From Methanocaldococcus jannaschii DSM 2661 (GTDB lineage: Archaea > AGJL01 > Methanococci > Methanococcales > Methanocaldococcaceae), in NCBI RefSeq assembly GCF_000091665.1, contig NC_000909.1:1342117-1374116 (forward strand): a stretch of DNA of 32,000 bases. Direction: 5' to 3'. Under the pieces are notes generated by a model. The model searched no databases, was not told the DNA's origin, and worked only from the letters and a program-made list of their open reading frames with translations. Shown one piece after another: positions 26,074 to 26,676 of the stretch (its first letter is position 1; each line of letters starts with the position of its first letter). A program made the position numbers and the translations under genes.

Positions 26074-26109
26074 GGTATTATGGAATTAAAAGGAAGAAGT
26101 ATTTCAAAG
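26074..26109 (+). repeat. Upstream copy of a ~36-bp direct repeat duplicating the RBS and first 10 codons of the AcnX small-subunit gene
   Basis: GGTATTATGGAATTAAAAGGAAGAAGTATTTCAAAG versus GGGATTATTATGGAACTAAAAGGAAGAAGTATATCAAAAG at 26278-26317. Confidence 0.85.
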
Positions 26110-26283
26110 CATAGAGGCAAAGCCTCTATTGCTATACTCCAGAGCGGGGTTGCCAGAGGCAACCCCACTTTCTATCTGGGGAGTATCCCAATAGAGGGGC
26201 AAAGCCCTTCTATAGTGAGGATACCTCTTAACACTCCCCTTGCTAACGCTCGGAGGTGTAAATTTTCTTATGATTGAGGGATT
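26110..26283 (+). ncRNA. GC-rich multi-hairpin element: candidate structured ncRNA or MITE-like palindromic repeat
   Basis: Clearly the most GC-rich patch of the window by eye. Perfect hairpins ATAGAGGC-AAA-GCCTCTAT (26111-26129) and GGGGTTGCC-AGA-GGCAACCCC (26146-26166). The latter is enclosed by ATACTCC/GGAGTAT (26134-40 / 26180-86). ATAGAGGGGC-AAA-GCCCTTCTAT (26191-26213) has one G.U pair only if read on the + strand. ACACTCC...GGAGGTGT follows near 26232-26259. Confidence 0.5.
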
Positions 26284-26286
26284 ATT

Positions 26287-26676
26287 ATGGAACTAAAAGG
26301 AAGAAGTATATCAAAAGGTATTATTGAAGGCATAGCAATCGTTTCTAAAAAACCATTCTCTTTTTTAGGAGGAGTTGATGAAGAGGGCAACATTATAGAT
26401 AAAGATAGCGATTTATATGGACAATCATTGAAAGGAAAAATCTTTGTATTTCCTTATGGTAGGGGGAGTACTGTTGGCTCCTATGTTATTTATGGTTTAG
26501 CAAAGAGAGGGATTTTAAAGGGTATAGTTAATAAAGAATGTGAGCCAATAGTTGCCACTGGGGCTATTTTAGGAGGAATTCCTTTAGTTGATAAAATAGA
26601 TATTGAGGAGATAAAAACTGGAGATAGGATTGTTGTTGATGGAAATACAGGAGTGGTGAAAATTTTAAATAAATGA
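26287..26676 (+). CDS. Aconitase X swivel-domain protein (DUF126/UPF0107); putative small subunit of phosphomevalonate dehydratase
   Basis: MELKGRSISKGIIEGIAIVSKKPFSFLGGVD...GKIFVFPYGRGSTVGSYVIYGLAKRG...: size (~129 aa), N-terminal G-x-A-E-G-type beta start and P-x-G-[RK]-G-S-t-v-G-S motif fit my memory of the DUF126 family. The functional assignment comes from published work on archaeal AcnX in the modified mevalonate pathway. Confidence 0.7.
   Translation: MELKGRSISKGIIEGIAIVSKKPFSFLGGVDEEGNIIDKDSDLYGQSLKGKIFVFPYGRGSTVGSYVIYGLAKRGILKGIVNKECEPIVATGAILGGIPLVDKIDIEEIKTGDRIVVDGNTGVVKILNK

Follow-up and report, generated by a model that had tools for sequence, protein, structure and literature searches.

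Within a 32,000-nt stretch of the Methanocaldococcus jannaschii DSM 2661 genome (NC_000909.1, positions 1,342,117 to 1,374,116; hereafter the window), a GC-rich patch separates pyrI from MJ1407, the gene for the small subunit of an AcnX-type phosphomevalonate dehydratase. This patch, at 26110-26282, is an insertion near codon 10 of MJ1407 that is accompanied by a duplication of the gene's 5′ end, as the first-pass annotation of the window had supposed. We base this on the orthologous pyrI-acnX junctions of three related lineages, which measure 13-20 bp and carry no duplication. In all likelihood, the inserted sequence is selfish repetitive DNA, in which three to four small hairpin modules, all GC-rich, are combined as a mosaic; they come from a repeat family that is restricted to Methanocaldococcus. 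The family most probably corresponds to the palindromic MJRE elements, to which we liken it by description and not by sequence.

The insertion is bracketed by direct repeats of 33 nt at 26076-26108 and 26283-26315, which are identical at 31 of the 33 positions. The upstream, non-functional target copy (26076-26109, plus strand) comprises TATT, the ATG and the first 10 MJ1407 codons in their native upstream context, and this context is identical to the empty site of the metagenome contig L004. The downstream target copy (26283-26316, plus strand) is the functional MJ1407 start region. A duplication of ~36 bp that includes the ribosome-binding site (RBS) had been claimed before; this length is fair and the 10 codons are duplicated, while the two repeats are only weakly similar in their RBS portion, so that a duplication of the RBS is not clear-cut in M. 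jannaschii itself. MJ1407 itself (26287-26676, plus strand; PF01989) is intact. Its product of 129 aa is 100% identical to the M. jannaschii MJ1407 protein and has thousands of full-length homologues with the N-terminus MELKGR. Upstream, pyrI (25620-26060, plus strand) is an open reading frame (ORF) for the regulatory chain of aspartate carbamoyltransferase, the orthologues of which have 146 aa with PF01948 and PF02748.

The upstream target copy now heads a chimeric ORF of 65 aa (26080-26277, plus strand), in which 10 native codons run on in frame into the element. This ORF had also been recognized at first pass, including its two conspicuous properties: it is in frame with MJ1407, with the two ATGs 207 nt apart, and a single TGA (26275-26277), located 9 nt before the real ATG, separates the two (TGA-GGG-ATT-ATT precedes the true ATG). 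A tail (26267-26282, plus strand) connects the last module to the downstream repeat. It contains this stop codon and also GAGGG, which resembles a Shine-Dalgarno motif and lies 6 nt ahead of the MJ1407 ATG. GAGGG would be the RBS of MJ1407. The shared frame and the single TGA might suggest that both ORFs are expressed as one protein by UGA read-through, and M. jannaschii does read UGA as selenocysteine in some genes. We regard this as scarcely credible. A search of 5.8 billion proteins with the 65-aa ORF returned its self-match only, which makes the ORF an orphan and leaves its 55 element-derived residues without a homologue. In addition, thousands of MJ1407 orthologues begin at MELKGR with no extension, the relatives lack the segment, and no SECIS-like (selenocysteine insertion sequence) Rfam family was found in the window.

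At the orthologous position, pyrI and acnX are separated by 20 bp in Methanocaldococcus sp. 16A (L001), by 17 bp in L004-L006, a group of metagenome contigs that are nearly identical, and by 13 bp in the metagenome-assembled genome (MAG) L008, each with a single start region. These sites are empty. Every assembly with the 100%-identical protein, that is, the repeatedly sequenced M. jannaschii, has a gap of 226 bp. A second filled site was found in L003, a vent MAG with 97% protein identity. There, pyrI and acnX are 186 bp apart, and 86/87 nt are duplicated (9826-9911 versus 9991-10077), a stretch that begins at an AGGGA Shine-Dalgarno motif and reaches codon 25. L003 and M. jannaschii have the derived downstream copy GGGATTATTATGGAACTAAAAGG in common, and its synonymous T>C change occurs in no empty site. 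Furthermore, in both of them a hairpin whose loop, GCTAACGCTCGG, is unusual lies about 35 nt before the ATG, and in L003 both sides of the stem of this hairpin have changed (CACTACC/GGTAGTG). The insertion thus predates the split of M. jannaschii and this closely related uncultured lineage. As to the order of events, one ancestral insertion would have been remodelled afterwards, and in M. jannaschii the upstream pseudo-copy would have been cut short at codon 10, a place now taken by a palindromic unit of 107 bp.

The pyrI-acnX junction of Methanocaldococcus sp. 28A holds a different element (L002, 9867-9990). It is AT-rich, about 113 bp long, flanked by a 2-3-bp duplication and bounded by the classical terminal inverted repeats ATAGTTTTGTG and CACAAAACTAT. 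Since this element is unrelated to the hairpin modules, the pyrI-acnX junction is a repeated landing site. A DDE transposase gene is located 1.5 kb downstream of the sp. 28A element; it was considered as a partner of the hairpin modules and rejected, as it goes with an unrelated insertion sequence (IS) or MITE (miniature inverted-repeat transposable element).

All of the stems that had been proposed for the M. jannaschii patch are present. A hairpin, ATAGAGGC-AAA-GCCTCTAT, is located at 26111-26129. ATACTCC (26134-26140) pairs with GGAGTAT (26180-26186), and nested within this pairing is a 9-bp stem, GGGGTTGCC/GGCAACCCC (26146-26166). A further hairpin, ATAGAGGGGC-AAA-GCCCTTCTAT at 26191-26213, is of the same ATAGAGG type as the one at 26111-26129, and a stem ACACTCC/GGAGGTGT is found at 26231-26259. 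In terms of modules, the array starts with a two-hairpin repeat unit (26110-26178, plus strand; assigned by the covariance model R1 described below), which consists of the hairpin at 26111-26129, the ATACTCC linker, the hairpin at 26146-26166 and the tail ACTTTCTATCTG. Next, on the minus strand (26179-26216), comes GGAGTAT plus AATAGAGGGGCAAAGCCCTTCTATAG, in which the first hairpin of the family recurs in inverted form, as assigned by a pattern match and by copies elsewhere. Together, 26110-26141 and 26179-26216 form the inverted-repeat arms of the 107-bp palindromic unit (26110-26216). The string CCYCTATTGNNATACYCC matches both 26123-26140 (plus strand) and 26180-26197 (minus strand), two matches where 0.02 would be expected by chance. 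Beyond a short linker, GAGGATACCTCTTA (26217-26230, plus strand), lies the third module (26231-26266, plus strand), with the hairpin ACACTCC/GGAGGTGT, the loop ..GCTAACGCTCGG.. and then AAATTTT. Judged by eye against the family consensus, the linker is possibly a degenerate leftover of the ..GCCTCTTAA end of another module.

We compared each M. jannaschii module by blastn with related Methanocaldococcus DNA that had been fetched for this purpose. The unit at 26110-26178 has a counterpart with 94% identity over 71 nt at L068 190-260, a locus unrelated to the patch, and parts of it recur in L013, L002, L116, L059 and L120. Copies of the 26179-26216 module are present in L073, L002, L059, L047, L043 and L089, while the 26231-26266 module has a 19-nt exact match at L073 1115-1133 and counterparts of the same type in L002 and L120. 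Across these loci, the modules appear in both orientations and in a mosaic order. Five kinds of module could be told apart: a first hairpin, CCATAG(A)GGG-loop-CCC(T)CTATTGG, with TATAC(Y)CC after it; a second one, variable in its stem and flanked by GGGATGCAT...ATGCCTCTTAA; an AT-rich one, GATGAAACTTTTTCTAAAAGTTTCAT; an ACACCTC/GAGGTGT hairpin with AAATTTT after it; and a GGGGCTTTCAGCCCC hairpin. Their most frequent arrangement is a two-hairpin unit of 64-68 nt, CCATAG...GCCTCTTAA. Palindromic MJRE-type repeats had been one of the options considered at first pass, and this option is supported by the recurrence of the modules, which occupy unrelated loci in either orientation and in one case lie within a coding region. 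The coding region is that of bioB in L003 (5284-6357; a radical-SAM biotin synthase), where two family modules at 5590-5680 lie in frame, keep the ORF open and add about 24 residues (IERGTLIGAESPNLMDVGYSNRGFPLW) right before RFSIVTSG.

A covariance model of the family's two-hairpin unit, R1, was used to scan 0.8 Mb of sequence that included about 70 bacterial control loci; at E < 0.1 it matched Methanocaldococcus loci only. In the window, R1 aligned over its full length at 26109-26169 (27.1 bits, E = 4e-4). When an 18-nt arm motif was searched in a collection of 185,579 species (596 Gb), where so degenerate a motif is unspecific, 17 of the 120 matches listed were from Methanocaldococcaceae; the list is a sample and not a count, consists mostly of chance matches and does not include M. 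jannaschii itself. The share of Methanocaldococcaceae is nevertheless an enormous enrichment. A scan of metagenomes with the linker motif of the two-hairpin unit yielded 18 further stretches from about 11 loci, and the same motif had no match in viral contigs.

The hairpins are kept by compensatory change. Among 34 copies of the first hairpin, 28 different cores and 14 variants of the stem, 7-11 bp in length, were counted. Of their positions, 95% form Watson-Crick pairs, and the variants include symmetric insertions such as ATAG[A]GG with CC[T]CTAT. In 19 two-hairpin units, 94.7% of the cells were paired, compared with 34-46% in slid controls. Moreover, 9 of 19 pairs had changed on both sides, against 2.2 ± 1.0 in shuffled alignments, and none of 500 shuffles reached as high a value. 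The M. jannaschii patch likewise folds far better than shuffled controls. Its minimum free energy is -77.6 kcal/mol versus -51.1 ± 4.0 (z = -6.6; 0 of 200 shuffles as good). The minus strand folds with z = -5.7. The conservation within the units is highest in the single-stranded linker and in the stem bases, which would be more like a recognition site than like a catalytic RNA.

A significant fold in a GC-rich island could equally be expected of a stand-alone structured non-coding RNA gene, comparable to the Hgc RNAs, and this had been the other option at first pass. The patch is indeed the GC maximum of the window (0.53 in 100 nt versus a window-wide mean of 0.31). The earlier statement that the window has no other strongly GC-rich patch does not hold, since GC content peaks again, at 0.50, near 11226. 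The covariation of the hairpins across family copies could be read in the same way. We consider such an RNA gene very unlikely. No module was matched when Rfam was searched with the whole window at gathering scores, with the region at E <= 10 and with seven related loci; the patch reached the gathering score of no family, the Hgc families included, the matches obtained were CRISPR repeats, tRNAs and 5S rRNA only, and the best sub-threshold match of the region (E = 0.7) was to an unrelated family. Furthermore, orthologous junctions lack the patch, a target duplication flanks it, its two strands fold about equally well, and the same modules occur in shuffled order and in both orientations, inside a coding region and in CRISPR arrays.

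Alternatively, the array may have been co-opted as a cis-acting RNA in the pyrI-MJ1407 mRNA, acting as a stabilizer that protects from exonucleases, as an intergenic pause site or attenuator, or as a coupler of MJ1407 translation to that of the upstream pseudo-ORF. This would be compatible with an origin by insertion, and repetitive extragenic palindromic (REP) elements act comparably in bacterial operons. The very stable fold of the sense strand would suit such a role, as would the G.U pair that the first-pass annotation had correctly described as valid on the plus strand only: the hairpin at 26191-26213 contains one G.T pair, which is an A.C mismatch on the opposite strand. The same applies to the pseudo-ORF, which is in frame, stops 9 nt before the real ATG and overlaps GAGGG, and to the arrays that are often placed tightly between co-directional genes. 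However, close relatives do without any element at the pyrI-acnX junction, and L003, which has the same insertion, has a different content between the repeats. The in-frame layout has a 1-in-3 chance of arising anyway. Lastly, the orientation of the arrays relative to flanking co-directional genes is mixed, with about 4-6 sense and 3 antisense in a small sample. A regulatory function of the array therefore appears unlikely to us, albeit not to the same degree as a separate RNA gene.

The duplication at MJ1407 is not a peculiarity of this gene, and target duplication is a general property of the repeat family. This became clear when the 110-130 nt on each side of every module array were searched for flanking repeats, in comparison with random positions in the same DNA. 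Flanking repeats with a score of at least 18 were present at 12 of 23 arrays versus 2.6% of 3,000 controls (binomial p about 1e-13). With metagenome loci and gapped alignment included, they were found at 21 of 39 arrays versus 1.9% of 1,500 controls. The duplications range from 21 to 86 nt overall, with 23-52 nt at non-CRISPR sites and 70-86 nt in L003. The CCATAG end of the element usually abuts the duplication directly, while the GCCTCTTAA end is followed by a variable tail of 0-25 nt, part of which may be diverged duplication. To the left of the element the sequence is variable, and no conserved target motif was detected at the junctions.

A second locus with filled and empty sites is nikR. 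In sp. 28A (L120, 2362-2527), a unit is inserted after codon 13 and the first 13 codons are duplicated (39 nt). In FS406-22 (L162, 9822-10046), an insertion at the same site is accompanied by a duplication of about 47 nt that includes the RBS, and an AT-rich hairpin is additionally nested inside the second hairpin. By contrast, M. fervens (L163) and L159-L161 have no insertion at this site; in M. fervens and in a 93%-identical orthologue, the intergenic gap is 4-5 bp and the sequence is present once. We therefore conclude that the duplication arises on insertion. In L146 (~3790-3960), an AT-rich hairpin nested in the second hairpin of a unit has a 21-nt duplication of its own (TCACCTCGCTTCGCTCGGTGAT / TCACCTCACTTTGCTCGGTGAT), and hence the smallest module, too, seems to insert with a long duplication. 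Apart from MJ1407 and nikR, apparent gene starts are duplicated in L013 and L147, the latter rad50-like, and gene ends are duplicated in a ferredoxin-like gene in L120 and, apparently, at the 3′ end of cbiP in L002. Survivorship is the simplest reading of this pattern: a gene would withstand an insertion a few codons from its end only because the duplication rebuilds that end.

Repeats around an insert at a gene end are also known from integrative elements that target such ends and carry a replacement gene end. The direct repeats at MJ1407 could accordingly be the left and right attachment sites, attL and attR, of a site-specific plasmid or virus that has decayed to ~170 bp, and the longer repeat in L003 could be seen in this light. 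Yet what lies between the repeats are genome-wide repeat modules and not decayed genes, and the flanking repeats differ in sequence from locus to locus, with no common att core. The gene lists show no integrase nearby, and there is no similarity to plasmids, phages or viral contigs; blastn of the element against plasmid and phage collections gave chance 30-nt matches only. An attachment-site remnant is thus highly improbable.

Hairpin arrays were further observed in six CRISPR arrays (L043, 656-830; L048, 2500-2750; L068, 120-440; L073, 990-1230; L142; and L155, 2020-2240), where they separate the final two repeats, which are degenerate. Copies of the terminal repeat stand on either side of them, and their number, 6 of 39, is far above the share of CRISPR in the genome. 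If the orientation of the CRISPR arrays is taken from the ATGGAAAC-type repeat end, this location would be the trailer end.

We know of no prokaryotic transposition mechanism that gives such long and variable duplications. IS transposases generate target duplications of 2-14 bp and casposases of 14-15 bp, Cas1-Cas2 duplicates the length of the repeat, and elements of the IS200/IS605 type and rolling-circle elements generate none. Widely varying duplications of 20-90 nt hence do not fit IS transposases, casposases or Cas1-Cas2. Integration of the Cas1 type, as by a casposon or of a CRISPR spacer, was rejected as a full explanation, because the lengths of 23-86 nt at non-CRISPR sites are not fixed; this rejection leaves the six arrays between CRISPR repeats unexplained. 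The element itself is of a known kind, and the unexplained residue consists of the long duplications and the arrays at CRISPR ends. Tentatively, and with the balance of our judgement tipped against it, the modules might represent a mobile-DNA mechanism that has not been described in prokaryotes, with a two-hairpin molecule of ~65 nt with defined ends, variable duplications of 21-86 nt, survivable insertions at gene ends and a seeming preference for terminal CRISPR repeats. Possible routes would be copy-choice onto a small single-stranded DNA or RNA, half-site integrations of a Cas1-like kind, or capture at staggered breaks that melt at 85°C in DNA of 31% GC.

For the insertion at MJ1407 we favour two routes. 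Either a small molecule with defined ends would have been inserted into widely staggered breaks, or copy-choice would have occurred during replication or repair; in both cases fill-in would follow. A classical transposase is not favoured. Loosely coupled half-site integrations were considered as a third route, and staggered nicks might fall apart at the growth temperature. The downstream copy would have provided an intact start region, so that the essential gene MJ1407 survived, whereas the upstream copy would have turned into the head of a meaningless 65-codon ORF. Since the insertion, the array would have been remodelled by the gain and loss of modules, and it would now merely be carried within the pyrI-MJ1407 transcript. 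Ribosomes that start from the old ATG would stop 9 nt before the real start and may in this way help re-initiation through the hairpins.

Among known repeats, those closest by description are MJRE1-3, which were reportedly presented by Suyama, Lathe & Bork (FEBS Lett 2005) as small (~100 bp), palindromic, mainly extragenic elements of M. jannaschii that can be in frame, and which are said to fall into several sequence groups, with a published list of 141 elements and an abstract that is not known to mention long target duplications, between-species insertion polymorphism or an association with CRISPR ends. The likeness lies in the organism, in the hairpins and inverted-repeat arms of the patch, and in in-frame carriage, exemplified here by the 65-codon ORF and the bioB modules of L003. 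MJRE elements are cited in PMC2229807 and PMC2996958, and a survey of REP elements that covers two Methanocaldococcus genomes gives counts only. In the literature we found no paper that mentions MJ1407, and none on long target duplications in Methanocaldococcus repeats.

REP elements and bacterial interspersed mosaic elements (BIMEs), known from enterobacteria and pseudomonads, resemble the modules in forming mosaic clusters of short GC-rich palindromes with alternating orientation, intergenic within operons and with compensated stems. In contrast, REPs have a conserved 5′ tetranucleotide (GTAG-like), are linked to REP-associated tyrosine transposases (RAYTs; IS200/IS605-like) and show no target duplication; we found no conserved tetranucleotide left of the element and no Y1-transposase gene in the gene lists of the loci. 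With MITEs (Sulfolobus SM, Correia, RUP) the modules share that they are non-autonomous and small, with terminal inverted repeats (26110-26141 / 26179-26216) and insertion polymorphism. However, MITEs have short fixed duplications (2-10 bp) that match those of a partner IS, whereas the modules are mosaic, with long and variable duplications. The sp. 28A junction element is a classical AT-rich MITE and illustrates this contrast. In-frame insertion in genes is also a feature of the Rickettsia palindromic elements. Finally, the mitochondrial GC clusters of yeast and the hairpin elements of sponges (PMC2800124) are GC-rich hairpins dispersed over AT-rich genomes, intergenic or, occasionally, in frame; they belong to unrelated lineages and have unrelated sequences, so that this is a resemblance only.

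Several observations weigh against the interpretation of the patch as a mobile MJRE-type repeat. The proposed equivalence with MJRE was drawn from descriptions and not from consensus sequences, and mobility is deduced solely from presence/absence patterns and target duplications. About half of the arrays have no recognizable flanking duplication. The gene lists of the loci show no transposase, integrase or reverse transcriptase beside the arrays and no partner IS, and no viral or plasmid copy of the modules was found in the collections and viral contigs scanned. Strong structure and covariation would fit a role at the RNA level equally well. Within 42 kb of M. jannaschii DNA (the window and the 10-kb stretch L158), the patch is the sole array, and the multi-copy status in M. 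jannaschii would follow from the congeners and from the description of MJRE. Five Logan contigs from independent short-read assemblies of M. jannaschii (L135-L139) start at 26109 or inside the first hairpin (26126). Such starts at the edge of the element weakly and indirectly hint at a repeat border, and thereby at further copies in M. jannaschii.

Elsewhere in the window, a minimal CRISPR locus is located on the minus strand at 29330-29640. It comprises a stretch that is AT-rich and resembles a leader, a single canonical repeat (29391-29420; Rfam CRISPR-DR13), one 30-nt spacer and a degenerate terminal repeat, AATTAAACCTCTCAAAGGGTTCAAAAC, and it contains no hairpin modules. Long direct repeats were noted at 1118-1417 / 4156-4455 (100% over 300 nt) and at 10063-10362 / 11062-11361 (92% over 300 nt), the second pair coinciding with the GC peak near 11226. 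Both pairs look like parts of large repetitive coding regions.

For the annotation of M. jannaschii, these findings imply that the proper label for the patch is repeat-element insertion with target duplication and not RNA gene, and that the 65-aa 'hypothetical protein' of some annotations is spurious. If confirmed genome-wide, the pairs of filled and empty sites, the unit ends, defined on one side, and the length distribution of the duplications would provide a handle on the spread of these old and enigmatic archaeal repeats, and would reveal in what way essential genes of a hyperthermophile can withstand insertions.

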